A stretch of DNA of 64,000 nucleotides, taken from NCBI GenBank assembly GCA_964371255.1, contig CAYJKV010000002.1, forward strand, positions 130,553-194,552, given 5' to 3'. Positions 3,034-35,409 of the stretch are shown piece by piece (the first letter of the stretch is position 1; each line of letters begins with the position of its first letter). The DNA comes from an uncultured Candidatus Saccharibacteria bacterium (GTDB lineage: Bacteria; Patescibacteriota; Andersenbacteria; UBA10190). Under the pieces are notes generated by a model that saw nothing but the letters and a program-made list of their open reading frames with translations, ran no database searches and was not told the origin of the DNA. The position numbers and the translations under genes were made by a program.

Positions 3034-4229
3034 AGTGCCGGATTTTCATTATGTTTATTTTCCCCGAGGCAACTCCTCAAAACGTCTTCATATCGCTGTC
3101 CCACCTTTGGCCAATAGAAATCCTTAACACTGATTTTGTTTGCCTCACCCATCCTCTTCGCTAGAGTGTCATCGGCCAATATTCGGTTCATCGCCTGTGC
3201 TAACGCCCGGTGGCTTTTTGGTTCCACCAATAAGGCGTTCTGCTCCTGCACTAAGAAATCTGTCTGGCCGCCTTCCCAAGTACCAATAATTGGTAAACCT
3301 GCTTCCATCGCCTCCAAAAATACGATGCCGAACCCCTCGTGTTCGCTGGCCGAGATAAAGCAGTCCGCCTGTGCTAAAATGTTCATCTTCTCTTCTTCCC
3401 CCACATAACCCAAGAAATGCACACGATCAATTATGCGCAAATCATCAGCCTGTTTTTTTAGGCTTTCAAGTAAGGGTCCTTCACCAATAATAGCCAGGTG
3501 AGCCTCTGCGGTTTTCGCTAGCGCTGTTAGTAAACAGCTGTATCCTTTACGGGGTATTAAACGCCCCACCGATACCATTAACTTTACTCCGTCCGGTAAG
3601 CTTAGCTGTTGACGCGATTGCTGATTATTACATGAGCCTTCTTTGATGCCCAAGTTAATCACCACAATTGGTCTGGTTACCTTATGAATATCAACTGCTC
3701 TCCTTTTAGTGTCATTCGAAATAGCTGTACATACCACGGCTCGGTTGGAAATAAATTTTACTAATTTCCTCAGCCACCAGTGCCGATGCGGAGAAACACC
3801 CTTGGTGGGATCAAACAGATCGCCACCAATAAAGCTCAAAACCATTGGCACCTGCCTGCGTCTCGCTATCAACATAGCTGGAATTCCTGAGGGTATAACA
3901 AATTGTGCGTTAATGACATCAATCTCTGCCTCTTTTGCTATTTTTCTACCATGCCACCAGGCACTCGGTATATACGTCGCCATGGACAGCAGCGACGCAA
4001 CTGCCAGACTTTTTCGTCCCCAAACCGGTACGCGATGCACATGCACTCCCCGTACTATATGCGTGTTGCTGTCGGCGTTGGTGGAGCGCTCCAGGAATCG
4101 TCTGCTGGGCCGGCTGGTAATAACATGCACAGTGTGGTGCTTAGCTAACTCTTCTGCGATAAATTTCGTAGCAATTCCGCCGCCTCCTCCCAAAGGTGGA
4201 TACTCAAAATTGAAAATCAATATTTTCAT
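3030..4229 (-). CDS. Glycosyltransferase family 4 (GT-B)
   Basis: EHEGFGIVFLEAMEAGLPIIGTWEGGQTDFLV motif. N-terminal FEYPPLGGGGGIATKF glycine-rich motif. 4-nt overlaps on both sides. Confidence 0.8.
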   Translation of the reverse strand: MKILIFNFEYPPLGGGGGIATKFIAEELAKHHTVHVITSRPSRRFLERSTNADSNTHIVRGVHVHRVPVWGRKSLAVASLLSMATYIPSAWWHGRKIAKEAEIDVINAQFVIPSGIPAMLIARRRQVPMVLSFIGGDLFDPTKGVSPHRHWWLRKLVKFISNRAVVCTAISNDTKRRAVDIHKVTRPIVVINLGIKEGSCNNQQSRQQLSLPDGVKLMVSVGRLIPRKGYSCLLTALAKTAEAHLAIIGEGPLLESLKKQADDLRIIDRVHFLGYVGEEEKMNILAQADCFISASEHEGFGIVFLEAMEAGLPIIGTWEGGQTDFLVQEQNALLVEPKSHRALAQAMNRILADDTLAKRMGEANKISVKDFYWPKVGQRYEDVLRSCLGENKHNENPAL

Positions 4230-6376
4230 AGTTCATTAAATACTTGCATGACTGGCTGTTTTAGGATGACTGACTCCTCGGCGCTATTTCTTATGATTAA
4301 CCTGCTTTTACCCGGTAGCGCTACTGTTTCGATCGTTTGTGTTTGCCGCTCTTCATCCCATTTAATTTCTACCTGCGTCCCCTCAATCGTTAGCTGGTTT
4401 TTCACCGCCCTGTTCAGCTCCCAGCTTATCAGGATACGTTTTGGCCCCTGATTATTATTATAGATCGTTAGAGTCGCCTCCTCCTTGATGCCGGCAATAA
4501 TTTTTCCCGTCTCTGGCTCTCGCCCGACTTCTCCCCAAGCATCATCACGGGCAATAAACACACCGTCCCCAGCTGGTAATTGACTGCTGTCGTACAGCCA
4601 CACATCATCAATCTCTTCGCGCCGCAATTTGCACGTCTTTTCCATAAAATCAATTGTTGCCTCCAGTTGCCTGTCCGATAACGAGTCCGGATGCACAACC
4701 ACCTGTCCAATATCTAAAGCGTCAACTACGTCGCCCATGGTTTCCACCATATCTTGCTCCAAAAATTCAGTCCGGTGCTCCAGTAGATGGTTCGTTCTTA
4801 AATACAATATCTGCCTCAGCGCTGGCATCGACTGAATTTCCCGATACGCCTGCGCCCCTTGTGCCCTTTCTAAAGCAATATTATTAAGCACGGTTTTGCC
4901 ATGAACTAAGCTGCCGAACAAGGCTCGTGACGCTATTGTATAGTTGGTCGCCGCCGGTAGTTCGATAACAGCTGTTCCTGGTTGATCTTTAATAACTGCA
5001 TAAGCTCTGGGGGTTTGCGCTGCCATCATCGGCACCGGCAGGAAAAGGAACTCCAGAATGATCAGCCCGGCGATAGCCCCGGCACTGCCCAGGCGCTTCA
5101 CCTGCGTTGCTAATACCCAACCAAACAGGACCATCCAGGAAAAATTAACCATGACACCCGCTCGGGCTATCGTCCTAATGGCGCGCAATACCGGCCAGCT
5201 ATCGACCATAGCCCAAGGCAACGGCACGCCTGTCACATACCCTAATAAATGTAATTTTGGGCCTAAACTAATAATGAAAAATATTAATGCGCTGCCAAGC
5301 CAGAATTTTAATTGCCGCCTCGGTATTTTTTGCCAGAAGAACGTCACCATTAAAATTGGCACATATCCCATAAATAGTGTTGTCTCTTGTGCGTTGCCAG
5401 TAAAATATCGTCCCCATACTTGACTAGCCGCCGATCCCCAAAGCGAATGGAAAGCGGCTGGTACTACGTAAGCGAACGGATCGGCTGAATAACGGATGAC
5501 CTGCTCCGGACCCAAGTCTAGCTGACTGTCATCTATTCCGGCTAATTGTATAGTTGGCCCCAACGATAGTCCGACGGTTATTAATACCAAGACGAAGGCC
5601 AATCCCAGAGACCATGTTCCTCTCTCCATCGCCACTACTGCCTTTAAGTTTGCTCGGAAATAAACCACAAACCAGGCGCAAAATATTATTAACCATAATA
5701 AGTAATGATGCTCTGTCCAGGCTTGGATTGTTATTAACCCTGCCACTATTAGCCCCTTTCCGATAGTCGGCTTATTCACCAATGACCAGGCCGTCAGAAC
5801 TATGAAAGGCAGCCATTGCAATTGCATGGCGCCAAAATGACCGCTGCCATGAGCCACGTGATAAGGCAGTAGCATATAGGCCATACCGGCCAGAAATCCC
5901 GGTGCTTCTCTGACCAACCTTTTGGCACCCGGCGTAATATCCGCCATATCTACACCAACATTTTCGCCATAAGTATTAATCAACCAGCCCATCAACAGAT
6001 ACATACCGTAACCAGCTAGTACGTAGCTCGCCAAATAAATTACATTGTATCCGGCAACCACCCCAAAGAGAGCCGCCACCGGCAGCCATGGCCACACCGA
6101 CAAATTCACCAATTCCGCTTTACCTAATCCAATAAATTCCGCTCGGATCGCAGTCGCGCTTCTCTCCCTCAAAGCTTGATTTACTAGCGAGGCCTTTTCT
6201 TCTAATCGCCATAAGCTTTGCCACGGATCTCCGCCGGTTCCGACAACATGGCTATTAATATTGCCCACTACGGGCCAGGTTAGTATAAGCGCCAAAACTA
6301 AATATAACCCAATTACTCCGGCATGTTTTAGAATGGTTTTTATCATGCTTTTATCTAGGGTAGCACATTGAATCAA
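4226..6376 (-). CDS. Large polytopic membrane protein (716 aa) with a C-terminal extracytoplasmic domain. Putative lipid-linked-sugar (GT-C type) transferase; family undetermined.
   Basis: About 12 hydrophobic segments in the N-terminal 450 aa, followed by a roughly 250-aa soluble tail. Divergent from a DPM1-like GT2 gene. Confidence 0.5.
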   Translation of the reverse strand: MIQCATLDKSMIKTILKHAGVIGLYLVLALILTWPVVGNINSHVVGTGGDPWQSLWRLEEKASLVNQALRERSATAIRAEFIGLGKAELVNLSVWPWLPVAALFGVVAGYNVIYLASYVLAGYGMYLLMGWLINTYGENVGVDMADITPGAKRLVREAPGFLAGMAYMLLPYHVAHGSGHFGAMQLQWLPFIVLTAWSLVNKPTIGKGLIVAGLITIQAWTEHHYLLWLIIFCAWFVVYFRANLKAVVAMERGTWSLGLAFVLVLITVGLSLGPTIQLAGIDDSQLDLGPEQVIRYSADPFAYVVPAAFHSLWGSAASQVWGRYFTGNAQETTLFMGYVPILMVTFFWQKIPRRQLKFWLGSALIFFIISLGPKLHLLGYVTGVPLPWAMVDSWPVLRAIRTIARAGVMVNFSWMVLFGWVLATQVKRLGSAGAIAGLIILEFLFLPVPMMAAQTPRAYAVIKDQPGTAVIELPAATNYTIASRALFGSLVHGKTVLNNIALERAQGAQAYREIQSMPALRQILYLRTNHLLEHRTEFLEQDMVETMGDVVDALDIGQVVVHPDSLSDRQLEATIDFMEKTCKLRREEIDDVWLYDSSQLPAGDGVFIARDDAWGEVGREPETGKIIAGIKEEATLTIYNNNQGPKRILISWELNRAVKNQLTIEGTQVEIKWDEERQTQTIETVALPGKSRLIIRNSAEESVILKQPVMQVFNEL

Positions 6377-6463
6377 TAATCTACCCTCCCGTCAAATTAA
6401 ATTATGAGCAATATCCACACCCGTGGCAATTGCTCGTCAGTGTGGCTAATGTAGTCTAATTAG

Positions 6464-7165
6464 ATGGCGAAGTTAAATTCAAATTCTATCAACGTAGTTA
6501 TCGTGATACCGGCTTATAATGAAGCGAGTGTCATTGGTTCTGTGATTGACTCAATCCATCGCGCCGGTTATTCCTCCATCATTGTGGTTGATGACGGATC
6601 GACTGATATGACATCACCAAACGCTATTACCGCCGGAGCATTAGTTATTACCCATCGCATCAACCGCGGCAAAGGGGCGGCCACAAAGACTGGCCTGGAG
6701 GCGGCCGGTCTTTTATCGGCGGATATTGTGGTAACGATGGATGGGGACGGACAGCATCATGCACACGATATTGACGCCCTGATTGCTCCTCTTCGCCAAG
6801 GCGTTTGTAATGTCACCCTTGGCACAAGATCCAAAGACACTGCCGCCATGCCCATTACCAGAATTGTCTCTAACCATATCGCCAATTTCGTGACTTGGAC
6901 TTTCTATGGCCTTTATGTGCAGGACAGCCAATCTGGTTTTCGTGCGTATAATCGCCAGGCTCTGCGCCAGATTTCTACTTCCGCGGATACCTATGACTAC
7001 GAAAGCGAAGTGATTCGTGAAATTCACCGTCATCGTCTCATTTACAAGGAAGTGCCAATTGGCGTACATTACACGGACTATTCAATGTCTAAACCAACCC
7101 GCCAGGACTTTGCCAATGGCTTCAAAACACTGTACAAAATTATTTGGAAGGTAATTTCATTCTGA
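6464..7165 (+). CDS. Polyprenol-phosphate glycosyltransferase, GT2 (DPM1/GtrB/CsbB-like)
   Basis: VVIVIPAYNEASVIGSVIDSI...VVDDGSTDMTS and VTMDGDGQHH (DxD). 233 aa is typical of Dpm1-like enzymes. Confidence 0.8.
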   Translation: MAKLNSNSINVVIVIPAYNEASVIGSVIDSIHRAGYSSIIVVDDGSTDMTSPNAITAGALVITHRINRGKGAATKTGLEAAGLLSADIVVTMDGDGQHHAHDIDALIAPLRQGVCNVTLGTRSKDTAAMPITRIVSNHIANFVTWTFYGLYVQDSQSGFRAYNRQALRQISTSADTYDYESEVIREIHRHRLIYKEVPIGVHYTDYSMSKPTRQDFANGFKTLYKIIWKVISF

Positions 7166-7518
7166 TGCGTATCGGCGACCTTCAATTTTATCAAATCGCG
7201 GTCCTACTCATTTCACTGGTGATGATTTACTTTGGCCTGGAGAAATATTTCCAGCGTCAGGCCACCCAAACCTTCTTTAAGCTTTTAGTCCGCATCATCG
7301 TCTGGGGCGGCATGTCCCTCGTCGCTCTCTTTCCCCGGCTCACCGATCAAATCGCCTCATTTATTGGCATCGTTGAAAACGTCAATGCCGTTATCATGCT
7401 GGGGTTTTTACTTGTCTTTCTGCTTATCTTTAAAATTCTTTCTGTCGTTGAACGACTAGAGCAGCAAATTTCTACCCTCATCCGTCAAGACGCCCTCAAT
7501 AACTTTAAAAAGAAATGA
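7165..7518 (+). CDS. Small 3-TM membrane protein. DUF2304-like or GtrA-like partner of the GT2.
   Basis: Three hydrophobic helices plus a charged C-terminal coil. TGATG stop/start overlap with the GT2. The track's start at 7144 is a TTG; the ATG at 7165 is preferred. Confidence 0.5.
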   Translation: MRIGDLQFYQIAVLLISLVMIYFGLEKYFQRQATQTFFKLLVRIIVWGGMSLVALFPRLTDQIASFIGIVENVNAVIMLGFLLVFLLIFKILSVVERLEQQISTLIRQDALNNFKKK

Positions 7519-8750
7519 AATCGTCCGTTCCCATGCCACGGACCAACCAGACCCTTGCCGATTCTGCCCCCCGACTGACAATTCCTGTTACTAACCATTC
7601 CACTTTTCGCTTAGTCTCTTTTTGTCCCTATTATCCTCCCCACGTGGGTGGCTTGGAGAAATTCGCTGACGCTTTGCATCGTTTACTGGCAGACCACGGA
7701 CATCATGTCACAGTATTTACGGCCCACCTCCCCCCGCCATCTCATCCTAGTTTCGATTATGGCCATGTTTCCGTCCTTAAATACCCAGCCTTTGATATCA
7801 TTTTTGGGTATCCCGTGCCAAAATTTTGGGATCCGGACTTCTGGCGGCTCTACCTCCGCTTGTCAGACACCAAATACGACTTCGTCTTATCATCTACCCG
7901 TTTCTTCCTTTCTTCGTTACTAGCGCTATTTTTTGCCAAATTCCATCGCCTGCCCCTGATCCACATCGAACATGGCAGTGAGTATGTGCAATCCGATAGT
8001 ATGTTTGTGACCTGGCTTGCCCGCTTTTATGATGAAACCCTGGGCCGTCTAGTATTGCGGTCGTCTACCTGCAATATTTCTCCGTCTCGGTCAGCACAGG
8101 CCTTTATCGCCCGTTTTGATCACCGCCCTTCCCCACTTATTTATCGTGGCATATCCCGCCGCGATATTGATCGTATTCCCGCTGCTGCGCTTGACTATAT
8201 ACACGCCGGACAATTACCAATTGTTTTTGCGGGACGTTTGATTGACGCCAAAGGAGTAGCTGATTTGTTGCAAGCCTTAGTCTCTTTGCCCCGCTCAAGT
8301 TATTTCATGTCTCTTATTGGTTCTGGTCCTGCGCAGCCCGCATTGGTATCATTAGTTACCAAACTCCAATTATCATCTAATGTTAAATTCCTTGGCCCTC
8401 TTTCCCATCATGACACGATCGCCCACCTTAAGGCTGCCGCCATCTGCGTTAATCCCAGTTACAACGAAGGGTTACCAACCGTTCTCTTGGAAGCCGGACT
8501 CTCCGATTGCGCCATTATCGCTACCGCTGTCGGCGGCACCACTGAAATAATCCGCCATCAGTATTCCGGCTTACTTTTTCAGCCGGCAGACCAGGCGGCT
8601 CTCTCTACCCACTTGTTCATGTTAATCAACAATTCTGTCCTTCGGGCCAAGCTGGCAGCTAACGCCAAACAGTCCATTATCAAGCAATTTGATCTATTGC
8701 GCACCTACCGTCAGTATCTGTCAGTTTTTCATAATTGCCGCCAGCAATGA
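7515..8750 (+). CDS. Glycosyltransferase family 4 (GT-B)
   Basis: NPSYNEGLPTVLLEAGLSDCAIIATAVGGTTEIIRHQYSGLLFQP motif. Confidence 0.75.
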   Translation: MKSSVPMPRTNQTLADSAPRLTIPVTNHSTFRLVSFCPYYPPHVGGLEKFADALHRLLADHGHHVTVFTAHLPPPSHPSFDYGHVSVLKYPAFDIIFGYPVPKFWDPDFWRLYLRLSDTKYDFVLSSTRFFLSSLLALFFAKFHRLPLIHIEHGSEYVQSDSMFVTWLARFYDETLGRLVLRSSTCNISPSRSAQAFIARFDHRPSPLIYRGISRRDIDRIPAAALDYIHAGQLPIVFAGRLIDAKGVADLLQALVSLPRSSYFMSLIGSGPAQPALVSLVTKLQLSSNVKFLGPLSHHDTIAHLKAAAICVNPSYNEGLPTVLLEAGLSDCAIIATAVGGTTEIIRHQYSGLLFQPADQAALSTHLFMLINNSVLRAKLAANAKQSIIKQFDLLRTYRQYLSVFHNCRQQ

Positions 8751-10690
8751 CACTCCAAAAACTCAACATCATTATTCTTTTGCTTTGGACGGTGTCCGGT
8801 AGCCTGGCGCAGCTTTTCTCCTGGCCATGGCTCGATCTACTTTTTACTTTGCTAACTATGATTGTCATGTTCATCATGGCCGGCATCAGCCTTTATTATG
8901 TTCTTTTCTATAAACACCAACTCGTCGTGCACGACCCGCCCTTGTTAGCCAGTGTTGGCCTGATTGTTAGTATCTTCATCGTTCCCCTGCTGCTATTTCT
9001 GGCTGATATTTTTCTGCCCCTGCACCACACACGCCTTCTTGCCTTAGTTTATATTACCCTGCTCTTACTGCCCTTGGGACGAAGTCCGTTACCTTTCTTA
9101 CTGCCAGATTGCAATTGGCGCCAGCTTCGTATTCAACACCTCTTTCATCCAATTATTTTAGCCTGCGGCCTCATTCTGTTCGTGCAACTTTTCTTATTAA
9201 ATCAATATATATTTCTGCCTGGGCTTGATGCTTATACCTGGCTAATGACCTATGACACCAATCTCAGTCACCAGCTCTATGATCTCTCCGCCGGTATTAA
9301 CCGGACCTTGTTTTCAACCCTAGTCGCCATTATTAGTCGGTTAGCTCACGCGTCCTTGTTCCCCATTTTCAAATACTACTTGCCGCTTCTATCTTTATTG
9401 CCAATCATCCCTCTCTGGCTGGTAGCCCGCACTCTTCCTGGCCGCCTCTCGCAATTCTTATTCTTGTCTTCCTTGCTGGCCGCGCCGGCCATTATCCTTG
9501 ATTGGCACGCGACTCGCCACCAATTAATTCTGCTGCTTTTTCTTTATCTTGCCATTGGTCTGTTATTCACTGCCCGTCGCTATCAGCTGCTTTCACTGTT
9601 TTGGCTTACTTTCATCGCCTGCTTTATCGGCATTCTTTATCACCCCTTATTCCTGGTTTTGATTGTCTTTTGGCTGTCGTCAGCCTTGATGCTGCACCGC
9701 TCTTTCATTAATCAGCATCCGTTATTTTCCGTTTTTCTAGCCGCTATATTCTTTTTTGCCGCTCACTTGCTCAAGCTAACATCCTTAATTACGAACTTAA
9801 CTCTTCGCTTAAACGACGTCTTCACCAATCTATTGTTTGGTCGCTGGAATTTAGCCTACCCGTCCGCCTTTATTAGTGAAGGCGTGCCGATGGGTTGGCC
9901 AGGATTTTTGGGTGTGTCAAAATATTACGGTTATTACGCTGGTCCGTTGCCTCTATTTTTAATTATAACGACCATCCTCCTCTGCCTTTTCTCTCCATCA
10001 TTTCGCCATCGTTTTTCCGCAGCCATGCGCTCTCCCTTCTTGCTTCCCCTGACTTTGCTATCCACCCTTCTTATCTTGCTGGCTGAATTTTTACCCCGCT
10101 TTACCGGCATCGCCTACCTGCCGGACCGCGCCTGGTTATTGCTCAGTGTTACCACTCTCGTTTTTATACCCTTTATATTTAATCACCTGCCCTCCCGTCC
10201 ATTCTCTTTCGTTATCATCGCTGGTTATTCCCTTGCTGTTATCAGTTCTACGGCGGGCGCTCTGTATATCAATCACAGTATGTCCTATACGATGCCAGAC
10301 TATGAATTCGCAGCCGCTGCCTGGATAAAAGCCAACTTACCGGCCCAGTCGGTTGTTTTTACCAGCTCCTCCAAAAATATTTTACGTTATTATGCCGGCG
10401 TGAAGCTGCTTCCCATCAATCAGCAGCTTATGTCTGGCAATAATGCGGCGGATATTTTAGCCCACATCACCACCTATCGTGATAAATTTGATCCGAGCAA
10501 ATTATATATCTATTACGCTATCACTGATCCGCGCAATCCATTCATTGATCGTCCGTATGCCAGCAGCTTTACCCAAAAACGCGATCTGACGTCTTTCCCG
10601 GCGCTGGATACTAACCACGATCAATTTGCATTAATTTATTCAAAGCCTAACCTTGTATATCTCTGGCAAGTTAATATTCTTAACCCATGA
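8735..10690 (+). CDS. Polytopic membrane protein (651 aa); first of a tandem paralog pair. GT-C-like; family unknown.
   Basis: More than 12 TM segments. Conserved motifs shared with the next gene: LFGRWNLAYPSAFISEGVPMGWPGFLGV, YSMPDYEFAAAAW and a C-terminal FPALD...W.V tail. Confidence 0.55.
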   Translation: MPPAMTLQKLNIIILLLWTVSGSLAQLFSWPWLDLLFTLLTMIVMFIMAGISLYYVLFYKHQLVVHDPPLLASVGLIVSIFIVPLLLFLADIFLPLHHTRLLALVYITLLLLPLGRSPLPFLLPDCNWRQLRIQHLFHPIILACGLILFVQLFLLNQYIFLPGLDAYTWLMTYDTNLSHQLYDLSAGINRTLFSTLVAIISRLAHASLFPIFKYYLPLLSLLPIIPLWLVARTLPGRLSQFLFLSSLLAAPAIILDWHATRHQLILLLFLYLAIGLLFTARRYQLLSLFWLTFIACFIGILYHPLFLVLIVFWLSSALMLHRSFINQHPLFSVFLAAIFFFAAHLLKLTSLITNLTLRLNDVFTNLLFGRWNLAYPSAFISEGVPMGWPGFLGVSKYYGYYAGPLPLFLIITTILLCLFSPSFRHRFSAAMRSPFLLPLTLLSTLLILLAEFLPRFTGIAYLPDRAWLLLSVTTLVFIPFIFNHLPSRPFSFVIIAGYSLAVISSTAGALYINHSMSYTMPDYEFAAAAWIKANLPAQSVVFTSSSKNILRYYAGVKLLPINQQLMSGNNAADILAHITTYRDKFDPSKLYIYYAITDPRNPFIDRPYASSFTQKRDLTSFPALDTNHDQFALIYSKPNLVYLWQVNILNP

Positions 10691-12927
10691 ACCGGCGACA
10701 AATCATCTTATTTAGCGCTTTTTCGGCTCTGTTGGCCGTCTCCCTCCAGTTCTTATCGCATTATCCCCTTCCCTTCTACCTTAAGCCGTTTCATGTTCTT
10801 CTGACAGTTTTCCTCATTATTTTTGTTCCCGGTATCAACCTAACGTACCTCATCGAAAAATTAACACGCCGGCACTATGATCTGCCGGCCTTTGTATCAC
10901 TGGCGATTCTATCATCACTCACCATCCCGCCTTTTTTGTTAGTGACCTTTTATCAGTATACCGATTATATTGATAGTGCCCTGGTTTTATTCACCTATAC
11001 CCTATTTCTGCTTTTGCCTTATATGTATTGGGCCGTAATTTTTGTGCTACGGCGCTGGTTATCACCGCCCATCGAAAGTCTCTTGGTCTTTCCGCGCCTC
11101 CGGCTGTCTGCCCTATTGTTTCACCCATTCACCCTTGTCTTTCTGCTTTTGCTCGGTGCTTTAGTTTACAACTTAACCCGTTTTTCCTTTCTGCCTGTAC
11201 CGGATAGTTACTCTTGGCTCATTAACTTCTCCCAAAGCTTTTCGATCAACACCTTACCGCTGTCGTCTGACTTTACTCGTCGCTCATTTTCCGCCTTACT
11301 ATCCGCCTTTTTCTATCTGCTGCACTTGGATCCCTTTTTTACTTTTAAGTATTTCTTTCCGTTACTGACCCTATTGATCATGCCCCCCTTATGGTTAGCC
11401 GGCCGTTATCTGTCAACGCGTTTATGGCAGTTTGCTTTTCTTTTCACCGCCGTTTTTATCTCACCCACCATCATTCTAGAAGTTACTTATATCCGTCAGC
11501 AGGTCGTTTTCCTGATTTTTCTTTATTTTATAATCAGTTTAAGTATCTACGCCATTCAAGTAAAAGATAAAACGATCTACTATTTATTGTTTATTTTTAC
11601 CTTATTTGGCACCATTATCCATCCCGCTTTTCTCATCATTCTCTTAACTAGCATCATCGCCTGGTTTATCACGCATTTAAGGACTGTTCGCCGCTTTCAA
11701 TTCACCACCTTGCTTCTATTGATCTTACTTTTTCCGCTGGCAAAAAAAGCGGCGCTCATCAACATGTTTGTCAGGATCTATGAACAAGCCCGTGCCTCAT
11801 TCATTAACGCCCTGACCGGCCGCTGGAACTTGCAATTTCCATCTTTCTATATCAATAGCGATGGCTATGAGATGAGCTGGCCAGGCGTGGTTGGTGTACT
11901 GAAATATTATGCTTACTATGTTGGCCCAGCCGCGATGCTAATTCTCGGACTGTTCGTTTTTTGGTTATTCACCAATCAGAAATTCCGCCGTCGCCTTACC
12001 TCGCGGCTGCACAACACTGTCTTTGTTGCCATTATCCTGCCCTTTATTCTTTTCTTTTTTATTGCGGAAATTGCTCCACGTTTCGGCAATATTGCTTTTT
12101 TGCCTGAACGCGCTTGGCAATATTTGAGCATCTTGGCCATCTTTGTTTTATTCTTTCTGATTAAGGATGGGCCAGTTTCCCGCTGGTCCAACAAACGCTC
12201 ACAGCTTATCTTTGGCCTATTGATATTATCATCCATCACCGCCTTCAGCGGCGCCGCGTACATCAACTCTCTGAATAAATATTCGATGCCTGACTATGAT
12301 TTCCGGGCCGCCGATTGGATGGTGAAAAATCTTAGCGAATCCAGCATGATTTTTTCCAGTTCTTCCAAAAATATTATTCGTTATCACGCCAATATGAACT
12401 TTATCGGCTTGAATGAGAATATGTACGCGGAGCCTGACCCCCTTGTCATATTAAATCATCTATCAAGCCAGCTGCCGCTGACGGCCGATCTATCCTCAAA
12501 TCTGATCCGCGTCTCCGCTTATTTATCAGATATAAGAGATACAGCCGTCTCCGCCAAAGGCTCTGTAGACGAAACAATCACCAAGCGGCACGTCTCGACT
12601 GATACCTATCAAGCCATTGATGCGTATGTCGCTTCCCTGCAAACTGCTTTAGCCAAGATTACCGAACACAATGAATCCGCTCGAGATTTCCACCAGTCAA
12701 ACGCGATAATTTCTGAAAAAATACCGCCGTTGTATATCTTCTATTCCACCACCCACCCTAAAAACCTTATGGCTGACCGTCCTTATCAATCGTCTTTTAC
12801 TGCCGATCAAAACGTCACGGCATTTCCCGCGCTGGATCATACTCCAGACTATTTTAGCCGTGTGTACACCGACGATCATAATGTGATAATTTGGCAAGTA
12901 AAGGTTCAGAGTTTTCTTCCCTCATGA
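10687..12927 (+). CDS. Polytopic membrane protein (746 aa); second of the tandem paralog pair. GT-C-like; family unknown.
   Basis: LTGRWNLQFPSFYINSDGYEMSWPGVVGV, YSMPDYDFRAADW and a C-terminal FPALDHTPDYF...IIWQV tail. 4-nt overlap with the upstream paralog. Confidence 0.55.
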   Translation: MNRRQIILFSAFSALLAVSLQFLSHYPLPFYLKPFHVLLTVFLIIFVPGINLTYLIEKLTRRHYDLPAFVSLAILSSLTIPPFLLVTFYQYTDYIDSALVLFTYTLFLLLPYMYWAVIFVLRRWLSPPIESLLVFPRLRLSALLFHPFTLVFLLLLGALVYNLTRFSFLPVPDSYSWLINFSQSFSINTLPLSSDFTRRSFSALLSAFFYLLHLDPFFTFKYFFPLLTLLIMPPLWLAGRYLSTRLWQFAFLFTAVFISPTIILEVTYIRQQVVFLIFLYFIISLSIYAIQVKDKTIYYLLFIFTLFGTIIHPAFLIILLTSIIAWFITHLRTVRRFQFTTLLLLILLFPLAKKAALINMFVRIYEQARASFINALTGRWNLQFPSFYINSDGYEMSWPGVVGVLKYYAYYVGPAAMLILGLFVFWLFTNQKFRRRLTSRLHNTVFVAIILPFILFFFIAEIAPRFGNIAFLPERAWQYLSILAIFVLFFLIKDGPVSRWSNKRSQLIFGLLILSSITAFSGAAYINSLNKYSMPDYDFRAADWMVKNLSESSMIFSSSSKNIIRYHANMNFIGLNENMYAEPDPLVILNHLSSQLPLTADLSSNLIRVSAYLSDIRDTAVSAKGSVDETITKRHVSTDTYQAIDAYVASLQTALAKITEHNESARDFHQSNAIISEKIPPLYIFYSTTHPKNLMADRPYQSSFTADQNVTAFPALDHTPDYFSRVYTDDHNVIIWQVKVQSFLPS

Positions 12928-13859
12928 TCTATCTCGTTTCCCCCCGTAGCGGCGGCCCATTTAAACAGCTCCAACTGATTGCTGCTACCCTCAACGCCAA
13001 CGGCTATCCGGCCCAACATTGTTTCGGTCTAAAAGACTGGCTGCTTTTACACTTCAATAAACAAGACAAGATTATCTCTGTTGTGCCTTTCTTATTCGTC
13101 CGTAACCGCCACAATTTAATCCTTAATATCCGGGGAAATTATCGCAAAGAGAAGAGGCTGACTAACCCGCTCTCCTATTTGTACGATCGTAATCTCAAGC
13201 TCGCCGCCAAGACAGTTGTCCCCTCGCTATATCTGAAAAATGAATTGATGCTGCCCGAAGCCACGGTCATTCCCACCTCAACCGATATTCATCTCCAGCC
13301 AATTAATCCGCCCGCCCACCCAACCGATCGCACCGTCCGTTTAGCCACGATCACGAACTTTGACTTTCGTCCCAAAGCCCAGGGTATCAATAAACTCATT
13401 AACATTGTTAACCAGCTGGAAACGTCTGTTAAAATGTCAATTCATATCTATGGTGGTGGCCGCTGGCTAGATCACGCTAAGCAACAATTTGATTTGCACA
13501 ACTATAAAAAATACCCCGTCTTTTTCCATGGCTATTTTCAAAACGCCATCGACGTCTTGCCGGGCAATGACATTTTTATTTACTGGTCTACTTTCGATAA
13601 CATGCCTAATGTGTTAATTGAAGCGACCGCTTGTGGTTTGCCAATTGTTGTTAATCGCTATGCCGCTTACGAAGAAGTCGTGGGCTCCCACAATCTGCTG
13701 GCTGACTCGGAAAAACAATTTACGGACCATCTGCTTAGTTTGGTAGAAAACCCGCCATTACGTCAGAAATATGGCCACATCAATAACTCCCGCTCTGTTT
13801 TATTCGATATTTCAACCAATATTAAACAATGGATCGATGTCATCAATGCCCCATCGTAA
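12924..13859 (+). CDS. Glycosyltransferase, GT-B/GT4-like (short, about 311 aa)
   Basis: C-terminal VLIEATACGLPIVVNRYAAYEEVVGSHNLLADSE. ATGA overlap with the upstream gene at 12924-12927. The track's start at 12891 is probably not used. Confidence 0.6.
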   Translation: MIYLVSPRSGGPFKQLQLIAATLNANGYPAQHCFGLKDWLLLHFNKQDKIISVVPFLFVRNRHNLILNIRGNYRKEKRLTNPLSYLYDRNLKLAAKTVVPSLYLKNELMLPEATVIPTSTDIHLQPINPPAHPTDRTVRLATITNFDFRPKAQGINKLINIVNQLETSVKMSIHIYGGGRWLDHAKQQFDLHNYKKYPVFFHGYFQNAIDVLPGNDIFIYWSTFDNMPNVLIEATACGLPIVVNRYAAYEEVVGSHNLLADSEKQFTDHLLSLVENPPLRQKYGHINNSRSVLFDISTNIKQWIDVINAPS

Positions 13860-15804
13860 AATTCCGTTTGGACTCTCTTGCCCTGACCAGTCATGCCCCG
13901 CTTCGCCCTCACCTCATTTATCCCCTGTCTCAGCTGAGCCTCCCGCTGTTGATGTTTTGTTGTCTGTCTATAATGGCTTCAACACCATCGACGAAGCACT
14001 GAACAGTATCCACCAGCAAACTTGGCAGAATTTTTCTGTCGTCCTGGTCAATGATGGTTCCACCGACCGTACCGCGCAACGTTTACGGACCTGGCAAAAC
14101 ATTTTCGGTCACCACCGCTGCCAGATCATTACCAACCAACGCAATCTTGGCCTTACCCGGTCCTTGAACGTCGGTCTGCGATTTTGCACCGCGCCTTATG
14201 TGGCCCGACTCGATGCTGACGATATCTGGCATCCGGATAAATTGATTCAGCAGATGAAATTTTTGCGTCGTCATCCTGATTATGGTTTGGTTGGTTGCTG
14301 GTATATGAACACCAGCCATCTGTCTGCTCGCGTTTTTCGTCTGCCTGTCACCAACGCTGCTATCAAGCGCAATATCTGGCGTCTTAATCCTTTTGGCCAC
14401 AGCTGTGTCGTCGTGCACCGGCAACTATTAACCCAGATAGGTGGTTACAATCCTAACATTGTCTATAGCCAGGATCGTGACCTTTGGTTTCGTTTGTATC
14501 CGCTCACGTCTTTTTACAACGTCCCCGCTGTCCTTTGTCAGCGCCAAACTAACACCGGGCTGTCGCAAACCAGCTATCGTCGGCAAATGTGGTCAAGCCT
14601 AACCATTAGGTTTAAATATTTACGTCTCTATCGCGCGTCGTTAATTAATTACCTTTCGCTCCTCTTGCCTCTTCTAATATTTCTGCAGCCCAGGTGGGTC
14701 AAGAATCTCAAGCTGGCCGGGCATATTAATCGCTCACTTGGCATCTCGCCCCAGCTCCATCCTGTGCCGATCAAGTTTAATCTGGCGGTCATCAACGATC
14801 GCCCCCTCCTGCCTCATCGTGGTGAAACCATCGCTCGGCGTGCGATGGCTCAAGCCTTAGCTGCCCACCCGTCTCTAGAGCGTGTATCCGTCATTAATAC
14901 CACTCCGTTTTTCTCGGCCTTCATCAAACTTCCTCGTCATGTACCTGTCCTATATCTGCGCTGCGGCGCCCTGGCTGCGGCCCTCATCGCCCTGCGCAAC
15001 TTATCCTCATATCGAGTCATCATTCTTGAGGTACATAATTTTCTGCTGCCTCACTTATTGGCTCCGTCGTTTTGGCTGTATCGTTTTGCTGCCAGGCGCG
15101 TTGATTTATTTATTACGATTGATCCCCAATCAACCGCGTCGTGGCTTAAGCTCGGCGCGTCTAAGACGGATATCATTGAATTGCCCAGTGGCGTTCCTCC
15201 TTTGTTGCGTCTGGGCGCCAATGAAAAAAATCGTATCCGGACCAAGTATGGCCTGCCTCTCAATCACGCATTAGCTCTATATAGCGGCAATCTTTATCGG
15301 GATCGCAGCATTGAGTTAATCATGCAGGCTGCCTTCGCCCTGCGCGATCAGCCCATTCACTTTGCTTTAGCCGGCGGTGCCTCTCAGGATATCCTGTATT
15401 ACCGTCGTTACTTGTCGTCTCGTTGGCCATCTTTGTCTAATCTGTCGTTATTGGGCCTGCTCCCTTATAATCAAGTGTTGCCCCTTTTGTCCTCGGCCGA
15501 TCTCATTCTCGTGACGTATTCCAGGTCGTGCCCTACTATCAATACCATGAGTCCTCTTAAGTTATTCGAAGCTCAATCTTCCGGCACCCCTATTCTCGCC
15601 GCTGATTTGCCTCGTTTACGCGCCTTGTCAGGCTCTTATCCTACAACTTTTTATAATCCGGACGATTCATCTGACCTCACCCGCCAAATATCGAACATTC
15701 TCCGCTCGACTTCACCGCCCCTTACCTCCAGCTGGTCCACCCCTCGCTCGCCGCTGACCTGGTCCGAGCGGGCAGATCTGATCCTAAAACAAATCCTGCC
15801 ATGA
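13846..15804 (+). CDS. Bifunctional GT2 (N-terminal) plus GT4-like (C-terminal) glycosyltransferase fusion
   Basis: N-terminal VDVLLSVYNGFNTIDEALNSIHQQTWQNFSVVLVNDGSTDRT...RLDADD (GT2 DxD). C-terminal LAGGASQD...LFEAQSSGTPILAADLPRLRALSG (GT-B). Start uncertain: 13771 (track), 13837 or 13846. Confidence 0.65.
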   Translation: MPHRKIPFGLSCPDQSCPASPSPHLSPVSAEPPAVDVLLSVYNGFNTIDEALNSIHQQTWQNFSVVLVNDGSTDRTAQRLRTWQNIFGHHRCQIITNQRNLGLTRSLNVGLRFCTAPYVARLDADDIWHPDKLIQQMKFLRRHPDYGLVGCWYMNTSHLSARVFRLPVTNAAIKRNIWRLNPFGHSCVVVHRQLLTQIGGYNPNIVYSQDRDLWFRLYPLTSFYNVPAVLCQRQTNTGLSQTSYRRQMWSSLTIRFKYLRLYRASLINYLSLLLPLLIFLQPRWVKNLKLAGHINRSLGISPQLHPVPIKFNLAVINDRPLLPHRGETIARRAMAQALAAHPSLERVSVINTTPFFSAFIKLPRHVPVLYLRCGALAAALIALRNLSSYRVIILEVHNFLLPHLLAPSFWLYRFAARRVDLFITIDPQSTASWLKLGASKTDIIELPSGVPPLLRLGANEKNRIRTKYGLPLNHALALYSGNLYRDRSIELIMQAAFALRDQPIHFALAGGASQDILYYRRYLSSRWPSLSNLSLLGLLPYNQVLPLLSSADLILVTYSRSCPTINTMSPLKLFEAQSSGTPILAADLPRLRALSGSYPTTFYNPDDSSDLTRQISNILRSTSPPLTSSWSTPRSPLTWSERADLILKQILP

Positions 15805-16901
15805 AGAAAAAAATTTTTCATCTCATAACCGGTTTGGAAGTAGGCGGCGCTGAGAATATGCTGTTAAAAATTCTGCCTCGCACTGCCGATACCTGCGACC
15901 ACCACGTTTGCTCCATTATCGGCGTCGGGCCGATTGGTGACAAATTAGTGGCTGCCGGTATTCCTGTTTACTACTTAGATTTAAGTAATACACTTGATCT
16001 CTCGATCATTCCCAAACTAAAGAAAATAATTGTGGACCTTCAGCCGGATGTGCTCATTACCTACTTGCCCCATGCCGACTTGCTGGGCCGTATTATTGGT
16101 AAGTTAACGCATGTGCCAACCATCGTTTGTTCTGTGCGTGTACGCTTAACGCGTTCAAAGTATTTGCCATATTTCATTCTCGATGGATTAACTTCCGCGC
16201 TTGTTAACCAATATCATTTTAACTCTCGCACTATCGCCGATCTCCATCAGCGTTTTTTACGCGTGCCAAGCCACAAGATAACTATTATTCCTAACACGAT
16301 TGATGTCGATATTTATGACATAACCATTGATGTTGTATCCAAAAAAAAGGAATTAAGTCTCCCGACCGACAAAATTATCATTGGCTGCGTCGCGCGATTA
16401 CGCAAACAAAAAGGCCATAACGATTTAATTGCTGCCTTTGCCCGTGTTCATAGCCTGCGTCCTTCGACCATACTTGTCCTAGTCGGTGATGGTGAAGAAA
16501 AACCAGCCATCACACAAACGATTAAACAATATCAGCTTGAACCCCATGTCATCATGCTGGGCAACCGCCATGACGTCCCGGAAATTCTTAAGACCTTCGA
16601 TATCTTTGCCTTTACTACCCTTTATGAGGGCATGAGCAACAGCCTAATGGAAGCCATGTCTGCTCGTTTGCCAATTTTAACGACGGATATCCCCGAGAAC
16701 CGCGAATTGATCACCCACCAAAAAACCGGCTTGCTAGTTCCCGCCCATCACACATCATCGGTCGCCGATGCTCTGGTTCGACTGATTGATGATCAATCTT
16801 TACGTAAGCAACTGGCGGCCAAGGCCTTCCAGGAAATAACAGCTAAGTTCAGCATCAATGCCATCGTGCCTAGATATCGCGATTTTTATCTTCACCTATG
16901 A
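15801..16901 (+). CDS. Glycosyltransferase family 4 (GT-B)
   Basis: FTTLYEGMSNSLMEAMSARLPILTTDIPENRELITHQKTGLLVP. Contains an A8 tract at 16341-16348. Confidence 0.75.
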   Translation: MKKKIFHLITGLEVGGAENMLLKILPRTADTCDHHVCSIIGVGPIGDKLVAAGIPVYYLDLSNTLDLSIIPKLKKIIVDLQPDVLITYLPHADLLGRIIGKLTHVPTIVCSVRVRLTRSKYLPYFILDGLTSALVNQYHFNSRTIADLHQRFLRVPSHKITIIPNTIDVDIYDITIDVVSKKKELSLPTDKIIIGCVARLRKQKGHNDLIAAFARVHSLRPSTILVLVGDGEEKPAITQTIKQYQLEPHVIMLGNRHDVPEILKTFDIFAFTTLYEGMSNSLMEAMSARLPILTTDIPENRELITHQKTGLLVPAHHTSSVADALVRLIDDQSLRKQLAAKAFQEITAKFSINAIVPRYRDFYLHL

Positions 16902-18253
16902 CTGCCACAGTAATTCTGCCTCACCCAAAGATTAATGCCGCCTTACTGGCGATCTTAATAATATTTATTATTAGCCGACTTACTTTATTCTTTCTGGAAT
17001 ATAATGATTTCCTGTATCGTCTGCCCCGGCAGGACGACGCGCCATCCTATCTCGGTTTGGCATCAATTTATGCCGGCGATCAAACATATGAGTCTCTCGA
17101 CCTCAGCCCATTTACCCGCGTGCCGATATATCCTCTGCTCCTCGCCCTTTTAACGCCGCTGTCCACGCCATTCTCTTATGCGCTACTTTTTGTCTGCCAG
17201 CAAGCTCTGCAATTGGCGATTATTTTGATCGTTTATGCTTATCTCTACCGTTATTTTTCTCGCCGTTGGGCTTTCTCTGCCGCCTTGATCCTGCTTTTCT
17301 TCTACGATTTTACAATTTATGGTTTTCTTGTCCGACCGGAAGTCCTGTTTACATTTTTCCTTCTCCTGGCTTGCTTATTGTATCTGGCCGCTATTTCCTC
17401 CAACCGTCTCCTTTGGTTTACCTTGGCAGCCTTGTTGGTATCTTTATCTACTCTTACTCGTCCCGTCGCCGCTCTGTTTATTTTCCCCCTGCTCCTTCTG
17501 ACCATCTATCACGGTTACCGCGTCCATGACTCCTGGCGGCCAGTTTTGGCTCGTCTGTTATTCATGATCCTTGCTTATACTCTGCCCCTCCTACCCTGGT
17601 TCTATCACAATTATCAGCTATCAGGCCTGCTCATCCTGCAACAAGACACCGGAAACCTTATCCACACTACCGTACCGGGCGGTCATTGGGGTACGGTCGA
17701 CATTCACCAAATTGTGAATACCGATGTTATGAGCGAATGGGAAGCTGATCGTGTGCTGACCAAAGAAGCGCTGACCAGAATTAAAACCAATCCGACCATC
17801 TGGCTCAAGAATTCTTTCTCTAATTTTTTCTTCCGCCTCTGGTCTATGGGCTTTGCCGACACTTATCTTCGCTATCTCGACCACACAGCTATTAATCCAG
17901 GCGGATACCACACACCTGTCAGCCCCTCTATTTGGCAACGCTTAGCTTCTTCCTGGCAGCTCTTCAACCCGGCGTTTAATATCTCTCCCATCTACCACCT
18001 GTACTTTATATTGAATAATTTCCTCGGCCTAGCTGTCACTTTCTCACCCGTTCTATCACTGATTCTCTTTCCTTTTCTGCCTTACCCCAGCAAAATTGTT
18101 TTTATTTTTTTACTATATTTCTGGGTAATCACCGCCTGCTTTGCCTTTAGTGGTTCCCGTTATATGGTTCCGCTTCTGCCGCTTCTTTGGCTAACCTTAC
18201 CGGCTTGGCCCGCTGCCTTCAAAAGATTAGTTAATTCAGACAGCAAAAGATGA
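16898..18253 (+). CDS. GT-C-fold membrane glycosyltransferase, PMT_2/ArnT-like
   Basis: Eleven or more TM segments. First-loop motif RQDDAPSYLGLASIY...RVPIYPLLL resembles the Asp/Glu motif of PMT/ArnT enzymes. Paralogous to 23399..24832. Confidence 0.55.
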   Translation: MTATVILPHPKINAALLAILIIFIISRLTLFFLEYNDFLYRLPRQDDAPSYLGLASIYAGDQTYESLDLSPFTRVPIYPLLLALLTPLSTPFSYALLFVCQQALQLAIILIVYAYLYRYFSRRWAFSAALILLFFYDFTIYGFLVRPEVLFTFFLLLACLLYLAAISSNRLLWFTLAALLVSLSTLTRPVAALFIFPLLLLTIYHGYRVHDSWRPVLARLLFMILAYTLPLLPWFYHNYQLSGLLILQQDTGNLIHTTVPGGHWGTVDIHQIVNTDVMSEWEADRVLTKEALTRIKTNPTIWLKNSFSNFFFRLWSMGFADTYLRYLDHTAINPGGYHTPVSPSIWQRLASSWQLFNPAFNISPIYHLYFILNNFLGLAVTFSPVLSLILFPFLPYPSKIVFIFLLYFWVITACFAFSGSRYMVPLLPLLWLTLPAWPAAFKRLVNSDSKR

Positions 18254-19542
18254 AACTATTTCCCGCCCAATCCGTCTCCTCCTCTTTATACGCGACGGCC
18301 AATAGTATCTACGTTCAGCGACATCTATTCTCTGGTTACAAAGCCGGTACCAATAAGGCAGACGAATATAGTTGGTTTTATATCGTGGCGCTCTCCGGCC
18401 AGAAAGATGAACGCGTAAAATTATTGGCTAATATATCTGAATCGGACATACCTTCACTGACTAGAGATAATAGTTTATTGTTTTACTCCGCCGACCAGAT
18501 TAATTGGCATCGTATAAACGAACCGGTTTTAACCGATAGCGCCGGTTTGAAACAATACTGTTCCTTCACCTTGCCCATCTCCGGCCGCTGCTATATATCC
18601 AATACGATCTTTTTTGACTACCAATATCTTCGTGCTTACTTTGCAGCTTTTGCCGCTCGTCACACTGATCTTTGCCGGTTAACTAAAATCGGCTCTTCCT
18701 TAGCTGGCCTCCCGCTTGACGTCCTCACCCTCTCAGCTAGCGCGCAACCCCGCGGCCGTATTTTGGTTACGACCGGCTGCCATCCGGCCGAGCCCGACGT
18801 AATCGCCAGCCAATCTATTCTTGATTGGCTCGTATCTCCTCCTGGACAACTACTTTTACAACAGTACGATGTCGATGTCCTGCCCTTATCTAATCCCGAT
18901 GGTTATGCGCAAAAGAGCTGCCTCACCGCCAATGGTATTAATCTCTATTGGAACTTCCTTAAGGATGATCAGACTAATTGTCCGGAAGCTTACTTCTTAT
19001 GGCAATACATAAGAAACAACCCCCCCTTGCTTTACCTTGATTTTCATTCGTATGTCCACCAGTACCATCGCCACCCCATGCCGTACCTCAAGGACCCGAC
19101 TGCTTACCACGGCGCCTATCCTAAAAACATAGTCAGACAAATGGACCGTTTTCTGATCAAGCAATCCAATGGTTATTATCGTTTTGGTAAATTGGCCATG
19201 TGGCCACGCTCTCTTTCGTATTATATTACGCGAGAATTTAATACTATTGCCTACACTAAATATCATTTCAACCTTTACGAGGGGCTCCTAGCTAGCCAGA
19301 CCAGGGCAACCAATATTTTTGCTGGTTTGTCAGAAATTTTACTTCGACAATCCCTCTCCCAAGAGCAAATATTATTTCCACCCCATGGCTCAGCCCGTGC
19401 AGATTTGACTGACCGTGCGCCTTATCTGCTCTGGTATCAAGTCCGCCAGGTTGTGCGCCAGGTTCACATGTATCTAAAGTCTTATTACCGCTACTATCGT
19501 CATCGCAACAAGACTAATCTTTACCGAACCAGCCGTTCCTAG
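18250..19542 (+). CDS. M14 zinc-carboxypeptidase-like protein (possibly degenerate)
   Basis: CHPAEPD (H-x-x-E) followed by LSNPDGY and NGINLYWNF, which resembles the HxxE...NPDG...NRNW arrangement of the M14 family. Confidence 0.4.
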   Translation: MKLFPAQSVSSSLYATANSIYVQRHLFSGYKAGTNKADEYSWFYIVALSGQKDERVKLLANISESDIPSLTRDNSLLFYSADQINWHRINEPVLTDSAGLKQYCSFTLPISGRCYISNTIFFDYQYLRAYFAAFAARHTDLCRLTKIGSSLAGLPLDVLTLSASAQPRGRILVTTGCHPAEPDVIASQSILDWLVSPPGQLLLQQYDVDVLPLSNPDGYAQKSCLTANGINLYWNFLKDDQTNCPEAYFLWQYIRNNPPLLYLDFHSYVHQYHRHPMPYLKDPTAYHGAYPKNIVRQMDRFLIKQSNGYYRFGKLAMWPRSLSYYITREFNTIAYTKYHFNLYEGLLASQTRATNIFAGLSEILLRQSLSQEQILFPPHGSARADLTDRAPYLLWYQVRQVVRQVHMYLKSYYRYYRHRNKTNLYRTSRS

Positions 19543-19588
19543 TATTTTATCGCTTGCGCCCGTTTGTTCCGTAGCTCATTATTTTCAT

Positions 19589-21627: not shown

Positions 21628-21707
21628 TCACACCTTACTCGCTAGTTAAACATTAATTAGGCAAACTCACTGTCCATGCTTTAAGATTATGGCATTGACT
21701 CTATTTT

Positions 21708-25465: not shown

Positions 25466-25621
25466 ATCGAATTTTTATTACTACATCAGCGCCTCCTCCA
25501 CCTGTTCGGATTGTTGATGCAAGTTTTCTCGTTAAATCCCTGTACGCCTGATTACCTCAATTATTGCTATCGTTAATTACCGCCGCCACACATCCGTTCG
25601 TCACTCTCGCTGTCATATTTC

Positions 25622-33082: not shown

Positions 33083-33091
33083 ATTGTTGCC

Positions 33092-34225: not shown

Positions 34226-34242
34226 AAATCAGGACGGGTCTC

Positions 34243-35400: not shown

Positions 35401-35409
35401 CAATTTAAT

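Follow-up and report, generated by a model that had tools for sequence, protein, structure and literature searches.

The best-described counterpart of the locus considered here is the GacI/GacJ/GacL system of Streptococcus pyogenes, which decorates the group A carbohydrate with N-acetylglucosamine (GlcNAc) side chains, together with the PpgS/Rv3632/Rv3779 system of Mycobacterium tuberculosis. In these systems a glycosyltransferase (GT) of family GT2 serves as a polyprenyl-phosphate N-acetylhexosamine (HexNAc) synthase, and a GT of the GT-C class uses the resulting lipid-monophosphate sugar outside the membrane (10.1101/180810; PMC8035078). GacJ, a DUF2304 protein, forms a complex with GacI and stimulates the synthesis of GlcNAc-P-undecaprenol, the donor for the GT-C enzyme GacL, and its homolog Rv3632 stimulates PpgS (10.1101/180810). 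Here we describe a locus in a 64,000-nucleotide (nt) stretch of contig CAYJKV010000002.1 from an uncultured Candidatus Saccharibacteria bacterium (hereinafter the window) that combines the same three elements, namely a soluble GT2, a DUF2304 partner and a polytopic protein of predicted GT-C type. The last of these is represented by two adjacent plus-strand open reading frames (ORFs), labelled A and B in this report. We lean towards the view that A and B are anciently diverged paralogs of the GT-C_A type that would use a polyprenyl-phosphate-linked sugar made by the GT2/DUF2304 pair to modify an acceptor on the outer face of the membrane; their family is most likely one that attaches lipid-borne sugars to a glycan of the cell surface.

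Two paralogous proteins of an unclassified family

Both ORFs lie on the plus strand, and at their junction (cccATGAacc) the ATG of B overlaps the TGA of A by 4 nt, just as the initial annotation of this DNA had it. The length of 651 aa that it gave for A corresponds to the ORF listing, in which A runs from TTG 8735 to 10690; the public gene call has 647 aa from ATG 8747. As the latter ATG also overlaps the stop codon of the upstream GT4 gene in the form ATGA, TTG 8735 is probably not the real start and ATG 8747 is preferred. The label 'giant', which had been applied to both products, calls for correction. Pairwise alignment, a check proposed at the outset, establishes that A and B are paralogs with a similarity far beyond chance: BLASTP aligns them at 34% identity over 451 aa (E = 5e-69), and their last 86 aa at 41% identity (E = 3e-15). 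The blocks earlier singled out as shared, GRWNL, WPG..GV.KYY.YY.GP, Y[ST]MPDY.F.AA.W and FPALD...WQV, are found in both proteins, with small spacing errors in their first spelling (W-P-G is contiguous rather than W.PG, and A is one residue shorter in the GRWNL block). A search of all six-frame ORFs of the window with a hidden Markov model of the family (hmmsearch) recovered A and B only.

The family is real but small. With B as the query, 23 relatives came out of a word-indexed search of 5.8 billion proteins, and an exhaustive phmmer search of 1.84 billion cluster representatives with A as the query yielded 259 clusters at E <= 1e-3, with 91 at E <= 1e-30. Neither A nor B has a match in Pfam (E <= 0.1) or NCBIfam (E <= 1), B has none among PDB chain sequences in phmmer at E <= 10, and a profile of 23 family sequences found none among PDB sequences in hmmsearch. 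When 70 diverse homologs were singly compared with Pfam, no GT-C family was matched at E <= 0.05, and four of the 70 weakly matched DUF6798 (best E = 2e-3). Across all 72 proteins (A, B and the 70 homologs), there was no match to PMT_2 (PF13231) at E <= 0.05 and no Pfam match to STT3 (PF02516). The earlier inability to place the proteins in a known family thus extends to A, B and the 70 homologs, and no profile match to an O-antigen ligase or a DUF2142-type family, which the initial annotation had named as decisive against its view, was obtained. As one Candidatus Andersenbacteria homolog bears the automatic UniRef name 'Glycosyltransferase RgtA/B/C/D-like domain-containing protein', the family is better described as unclassified than as wholly unrecognised.

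A degenerate-pattern scan over one genome per GTDB species found 16 loci, 11 of them in Patescibacteria groups (Andersenbacteria, Moranbacteria/Moraniibacteriota, Saccharibacteria and 'Patescibacteria group'), three in co-assembly bins labelled 'uncultured Bdellovibrionales' (labels as deposited) and two unclassified. The nearest locus to that of the window, in Candidatus Andersenbacteria RIFCSPHIGHO2_02_FULL_46_16, has an identical gene order. The Bdellovibrionales-labelled bins (L013, L014 and L020) carry a GT2–DUF2304–family–GT4 module as in the Patescibacteria loci; either their label is doubtful or the module has spread beyond Patescibacteria.

The two paralogs stem from an old duplication within an Andersenbacteria-type lineage, as they fall in separate clades of a neighbour-joining tree, each with its own ortholog in the Andersenbacteria genome of locus L007. 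On the B side are the downstream copies of two further tandem loci, L007 (63% identity) and L004 (42%), and many single database proteins; A is joined by the upstream copy of L007, which is 57% identical to it and likewise about 645 aa long. In more distant genomes the family is present as a single copy. A recent tandem duplication is rejected by the tree and by the A/B identity of about 33–34%; the original description of the pair as tandem-duplicated needs correction if it is read as recent. Separately, an apparent frameshift of A in L002, a metagenome assembly of the same organism, is an artefact of a scaffold gap: 100 N lie inside the gene at 8272-8371 of that assembly, and the gene caller gives a truncated 538-aa product.

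Fold, topology and conserved outer-face residues

The AlphaFold2 model of B, computed with the family alignment as input, is of high confidence (pLDDT 86.7, pTM 0.83). A Foldseek search of the PDB with this model, as had been recommended, placed GT-C_A glycosyltransferases at all of ranks 1–14 (probability 0.99–1.0, E from 7e-6 to 5e-2), including PglB (5ogl, E = 7e-6), the yeast and mammalian STT3 proteins, DPY19, ArnT and AglB, and matches from rank 15 onward are noise (probability < 0.1). There is little doubt, then, that the A/B family has the GT-C fold and belongs to this enzyme class, as the initial annotation had guessed. Its further suggestion of a polymerase fared differently. Among the 50 Foldseek matches listed there is no Wzy, WaaL, RodA-type, YfhO or DUF2142 fold, and no profile match to Wzy, WaaL, YfhO or DUF2142 was found in Pfam or NCBIfam; a polymerase or ligase reading was accordingly rejected. 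At the level of sequence profiles, hhalign of the family alignment (132 sequences) against a profile built from the PMT_2 protein of the window and homologs of it aligned B 225–333 with PMT_2 102–209 (108 of about 730 columns; probability 84.8%, E = 6.5e-6 for a single comparison), which weakly points to distant kinship with PMT_2/ArnT within the GT-C clan, short of membership.

Taking the helices of the model as transmembrane (TM) segments gives a count of 15, with the N-terminus inside and the C-terminus outside, and the predicted inner loops have 15 lysines and arginines in 64 residues as compared to 6 in 120 residues of the short outer loops. Helices 1–4 are poorly conserved, and helix 5 is followed by a 50-residue outer loop with two short helices within it. 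GT-C_A enzymes possess a polytopic core of 7–13 or more TM helices and a cytoplasmic N-terminus, with which the roughly 15 segments and the charge bias of this family agree. A long first extracytoplasmic loop with an acidic motif and juxtamembrane helices, as in GT-C_A enzymes, is also present, though it comes after the fifth helix and not the first.

This loop opens with a motif of the form LP[D/E]xDPYxW, in which the second aspartate (D173 of B; D161 of A, the candidate catalytic residue) is conserved in 132 of 132 family members, the alignment on which all conservation counts are based. A stated hallmark of GT-C enzymes in such systems is an outer-loop DxD motif, in its plain or a modified form (PMC8035078). 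Likewise invariant are R198, P464 and R465 (B numbering), and conservation exceeds 90% for K221, Q272, H312, an outer loop spanning N381–W398, E461, the L472-P473-x-R475-x-W477 segment and R698. Nearly all of these residues lie on the outer side, be it in a loop, at the end of a helix or in the C-terminal domain, the exception being K221, positioned near the outer start of TM6. A retains all of the invariant and almost all of the near-invariant residues and differs in the conserved outer loop, where it has FIS-EG against YINSDG. Given this combination, we read A as a protein with a changed specificity rather than one undergoing decay.

The C-terminal alpha/beta domain outside the membrane, modeled in isolation with a pLDDT of 88.4, had no significant match in a fold search of the PDB; the second-ranked entry, the C-terminal domain of AglB-S2 (3vu0), is itself not significant (E = 0.22, probability 0.33). 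Within this domain, B has a predicted antiparallel helical hairpin that retrieves generic coiled-coil matches only and in which serine, threonine and aspartate make up 30% of the residues versus 18.5% in the whole of B. The initial annotation had described a roughly 90-aa insert rich in these residues; the segment (about 85 aa) and its enrichment are as described, and its polarity has to be reversed. As the region exceeds 50 residues in 116 of the 132 members and measures <= 20 in only seven, A included, the hairpin is ancestral and was lost by A and its ortholog, not gained by B.

Operon context and the probable source of the donor sugar

A and B sit within a chain of ten genes (6464-19542) whose start and stop codons overlap by 1–14 nt in ATGA or TGATG type junctions, suggesting a single translationally coupled operon. 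The GT2 at its head lacks a TM helix, matches dolichol-phosphate mannose synthase in the PDB, and has as its best NCBIfam matches PpgS (polyprenyl-phospho-GalNAc synthase, E = 2e-41) and AglJ (E = 1e-38). It is followed by the DUF2304 gene (ATG 7165 in the public call, as against 7144 in the ORF listing) and a GT4. When the ORFs of 19 related, independent loci were searched with the window proteins, 16 of the loci extended far enough upstream to be informative, and in 15 of these a GT2 homolog and a DUF2304 protein directly precede the family gene, a synteny that extends to members just 21–26% identical to A and B; a GT4 homolog also adjoins the family gene in the related loci. Of the features by which multi-component transmembrane glycosylation systems are recognized (GtrB/GtrA/Gtr*, CsbB/GtcA/YfhO, GacI/J/K/L), both the putative GT-A-fold polyprenyl-P-sugar synthase next to the GT-C and the DUF2304 partner of the GacI/J variant are found here. 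This conserved GacI/GacJ-like neighbor lends support to the idea of a lipid-sugar transferase put forward in the initial annotation, and we consider it probable that the sugar donor of A and B is supplied by the adjacent GT2/DUF2304 synthase.

We propose that the GT2 and its DUF2304 partner would take a sugar from its nucleotide-activated form and attach it to polyprenyl monophosphate on the inner side of the membrane, as GacI/GacJ and PpgS/Rv3632 do, that the lipid-linked sugar would then be flipped across the membrane, and that on the outer side A and B would transfer it to a surface acceptor, which may be a wall or lipid-anchored glycan or a protein. Their active site is predicted to comprise the aspartate of the first outer loop (D173 in B, D161 in A) along with the conserved arginine, glutamate and histidine residues of the outer face. 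Because the invariant residues are kept in both proteins while the outer loop and the C-terminal domain differ, each most likely has an acceptor, or a position on the acceptor, of its own; this division of labour, like the donor and the direction of transfer, is what we infer, whereas paralogy, fold, topology, conserved motif and synteny are what the analysis shows. EmbA/EmbB and Pmt1/Pmt2 furnish precedents for heterodimers among such enzymes, and with the 4-nt overlap of the two genes they make an A/B heterodimer plausible by analogy.

Several observations weigh against this proposal. The TM-scores of the B model to solved GT-Cs are low (0.32–0.43; TMq 0.43 for the 8age match), and the nearest subfamily is not discernible from them. 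The first acidic position of the loop motif is aspartate or glutamate in 108 of the 132 members, but valine in B and glycine in A. The scores of the GT2 against PpgS and AglJ fall well short of the curated cut-offs, and the operon has no GtrA-type flippase, with only a Wzx-like gene 34 kb away. Finally, the synteny of the GT4 is no looser than that of the GT2/DUF2304 pair, and the simple three-component model leaves this unexplained.

This synteny of a gene outside the three-component scheme keeps two alternatives alive. One is a mechanism like that of oligosaccharyltransferases (OSTs), in which an AglJ-like GT2 would prime polyprenyl monophosphate, the GT4 and other cytoplasmic GTs of the operon would extend this to a short lipid-linked oligosaccharide, and A and B would transfer the product en bloc, as is done with dolichol-phosphate-linked glycans by archaeal AglB. 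The recipient would be a wall polymer or a protein such as a pilin or S-layer protein. PglB and STT3 are indeed the best fold matches, with AglB also listed, but the TM-scores are alike for OSTs, DPY19 and ArnT; an extracytoplasmic C-terminal globular domain is a feature of OSTs, and 3vu0 ranks second for it, but that match is not significant. The near-equal GT2 scores for AglJ and PpgS, the invariable adjacency of the GT4 and the lack of a phosphoglycosyltransferase among the window ORFs scanned would also be consistent with en bloc transfer. On the other hand, a WWDYG-like motif occurs in 0 of the 132 members (WW is absent from A and B altogether), no STT3 profile is matched, the sole profile-level link is to PMT_2, a monosaccharide-donor family, and the characterised DUF2304 partners sit in monosaccharide-donor systems. 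We hence regard this alternative as unlikely. Its strongest form, a new class of OST found mostly in Patescibacteria, with a PglB/STT3 fold devoid of WWDYG, glycans carried on polyprenyl monophosphate and an A/B heterodimer of two acceptor specificities, appears more doubtful still.

The other alternative is the elongation of a lipoglycan or glycolipid comparable to that by mycobacterial PimE, MptA and MptB, with the GT4 making the anchor in the cytoplasm and A and B extending it outside in sequence, using sugars of the polyprenyl-P donor. The assembly of phosphatidylinositol mannosides, lipomannan and lipoarabinomannan combines a GT4, a polyprenyl-P-sugar synthase and several GT-Cs, a logic that the present GT4, GT2 synthase and GT-C genes fit, and two successive GT-C paralogs would suit sequential steps. 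Glycolipid synthases, among them MGlcDAG synthase and GlcN-PG synthase, are weakly matched by the GT4; these matches are, however, generic and far below the cut-offs, no PimE-type or GT-C_B-type fold is among the matches listed, and lipoglycans are not known from these bacteria, making this an improbable account. That A and B might not be GTs at all, being instead a GT-C-shaped flippase, scaffold or transporter, or A a non-catalytic partner, would accommodate the lack of an identified flippase in the operon as well as the missing hairpin and altered outer loop of A. Against it, the invariant outer-loop aspartate and the outer-face arginine, glutamate and histidine residues, typical of catalytic GT-Cs, are kept in both copies and all significant fold matches are to enzymes; we deem it very unlikely. 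We retain the transfer of a polyprenyl-phosphate-linked sugar as the preferred reading.

The surrounding glycan island and known systems

The window as a whole constitutes one long glycan-biosynthesis island (Table 1). It holds at least 12 Leloir GTs; two recognizable GT-C genes of the PMT_2 (ArnT/PMT-like) family, with A and B, bring the GT-C enzymes encoded by the locus to at least four. Comparison of the neighboring GTs with NCBIfam, for clues to the sugar and acceptor, gave generic sub-threshold GT4 and GT2 matches only, and a promoter and terminator scan of 6000-25500 gave counts near shuffled expectation and was uninformative. An initiating phosphoglycosyltransferase of the MraY/WecA or Bac_transf type was not found among the scanned window ORFs >= 120 aa. 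The island further includes five other polytopic membrane proteins of about 8–10 hydrophobic segments each, which may be further unclassified GT-C-like or polymerase-like enzymes: three have no Pfam match, the only match of a fourth (926 aa) is to the C-terminal end of YfhO, and in the fifth TPR repeats accompany about 8 TM segments. The glycan may contain a furanose sugar, as hinted at by a homolog of the plant-type 'reversibly glycosylated polypeptide' family, to which UDP-arabinopyranose mutases belong. A nonulosonic-acid (sialic-acid-like) pathway adjoins a plus-strand Capsule_synth (KpsS-like) gene.

Neither BLASTP nor hhalign relates the divergently oriented 716-aa membrane protein upstream of the operon to A or B. 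This protein is syntenic in the Andersenbacteria-type loci L004, L005, L007, L012 and L016, its L005 homolog bearing a weak DUF6044 mark. The GC skew of the window is about -0.2 (C over G on the plus strand) in every 2-kb bin of 1-64000, independent of gene strand; most genes lie on the C-rich strand, and the asymmetry is strong and uniform.

Table 1. Locations of the paralogs, their landmarks and other genes of the glycan island (window coordinates)
Feature	Position	Strand	Remarks
716-aa membrane protein	4226..6376	-	Divergent to operon; no Pfam or NCBIfam match
Soluble GT2, 233 aa	6464..7165	+	PpgS/AglJ/GacI type; putative polyprenyl-phosphate sugar synthase
DUF2304 small membrane protein	7165..7518	+	GacJ/Rv3632 family; PF10066, E = 1e-16
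GT4, 411 aa	7515..8750	+	Syntenic with the family in almost all loci
Family member A	8747..10690	+	647 aa from ATG 8747; GT-C-like polytopic membrane protein without C-terminal helical hairpin
D161 of A	9227-9229	+	Codon of candidate catalytic Asp
Family member B	10687..12927	+	746 aa, ATG start; about 15 TM helices, N-in/C-out, predicted GT-C_A fold
Motif PVPDSYSW, B 170-177	11194..11217	+	Local form of LP[D/E]xDPYxW, opening the first long outer loop after TM5
D173 of B	11203-11205	+	Second Asp of motif
Outer loop NLxFPxxYxNxDGxxMxW, B 381-399	11827..11883	+	Conserved; A diverges
Block E461-x2-P464-R465 ... L472-P473-x-R475-x-W477, B 461-477	12067..12117	+	Outer end of TM13 and short outer loop
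Outer C-terminal alpha/beta domain, B 533-746	12283..12924	+	About 210 aa; no significant PDB match
Antiparallel helical hairpin (predicted), B 595-677	12469..12717	+	About 85 aa; absent from A
GT1/GT4-like	12924-13859	+	
GT2+GT4 fusion	13846-15804	+	
GT4	15801-16901	+	
PMT_2 GT-C	16898-18253	+	
M14 peptidase	18250-19542	+	
PMT_2 GT-C	23399-24832	+	
Polytopic membrane protein	28867-30096	-	
Reversibly glycosylated polypeptide homolog	30167-31285	-	PF03214, E = 3e-12
Nonulosonic-acid pathway	32336-36948	-	NeuB-type synthase, CMP-sugar cytidylyltransferase, UDP-GlcNAc 2-epimerase
Polysacc_synt (Wzx-like)	46732-48000	-	
Polytopic membrane protein	49583-51016	+	
Polytopic membrane protein	55568-58024	+	
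Polytopic membrane protein	58017-60797	+	
Polytopic membrane protein	60835-62790	-	

Cells of the candidate phyla radiation are mostly uncultured, often epibiotic and dependent on surface contact with their hosts. To our knowledge, almost nothing is known of how they construct their surfaces, and a literature search for GT-C enzymes in Patescibacteria found no paper. The four-gene core of GT2, DUF2304, GT-C and GT4 offers a defined and testable extracytoplasmic glycosylation module in these bacteria, and the GacI/GacJ-type synthase pair can be used as a genomic marker for other unclassified GT-C enzymes. GT-C enzymes are notoriously divergent in sequence, and reviews have expected further examples to emerge from fold prediction; the family is on that account unsurprising to specialists and overturns nothing, being a useful addition to a known kind of system.

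A precedent is ORF12 of Citrobacter youngae, a GT-C without similarity to existing GT families that was recognized via its predicted fold and three-component context, and which founded the CAZy family GT136 in 2024 once its activity in a three-component pentofuranose addition was shown (PMC11127046). The A/B family would similarly found a new CAZy GT family if activity were shown. Compared by description, the ORF12 system differs from the A/B locus in having a phosphoribosyltransferase as the donor synthase, a MATE-type flippase and a carbohydrate-binding module (CBM) as its extra domain (PMC11127046). GacL, also compared by description, has a reported 12–13 TM segments (10.1101/180810), and A and B are larger, with 647 and 746 aa and about 15 TM segments; relative to the GacL systems, the family adds the outer C-terminal domain of about 210 aa without a PDB match and the syntenic GT4.

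PMT_2/ArnT (PF13231; the CAZy GT39/GT83 neighborhood) provides the only profile-level sequence link, with ArnT among the fold matches, but A and B have four extra N-terminal helices before the helix preceding the catalytic loop and a different C-terminal domain, and PF13231 is unmatched in the 72 proteins. With PglB/STT3/AglB (GT66), the best Foldseek matches, they have in common that the first outer loop bears a DxD-type motif and that the C-terminal domain is globular and lies outside; unlike these, the family lacks WWDYG and an STT3 Pfam match, the fold match of its C-terminal domain to that of AglB is not significant, and its context points to a monophosphate sugar donor. Taken together, these comparisons describe a new sequence family with a known GT-C fold in a known kind of operon, found mostly in Patescibacteria and distinguished by about 15 TM segments that include four extra helices at the N-terminus, a C-terminal domain on the outer side that bears a coiled-coil hairpin and has no solved relative, a syntenic GT4 and this largely patescibacterial distribution.

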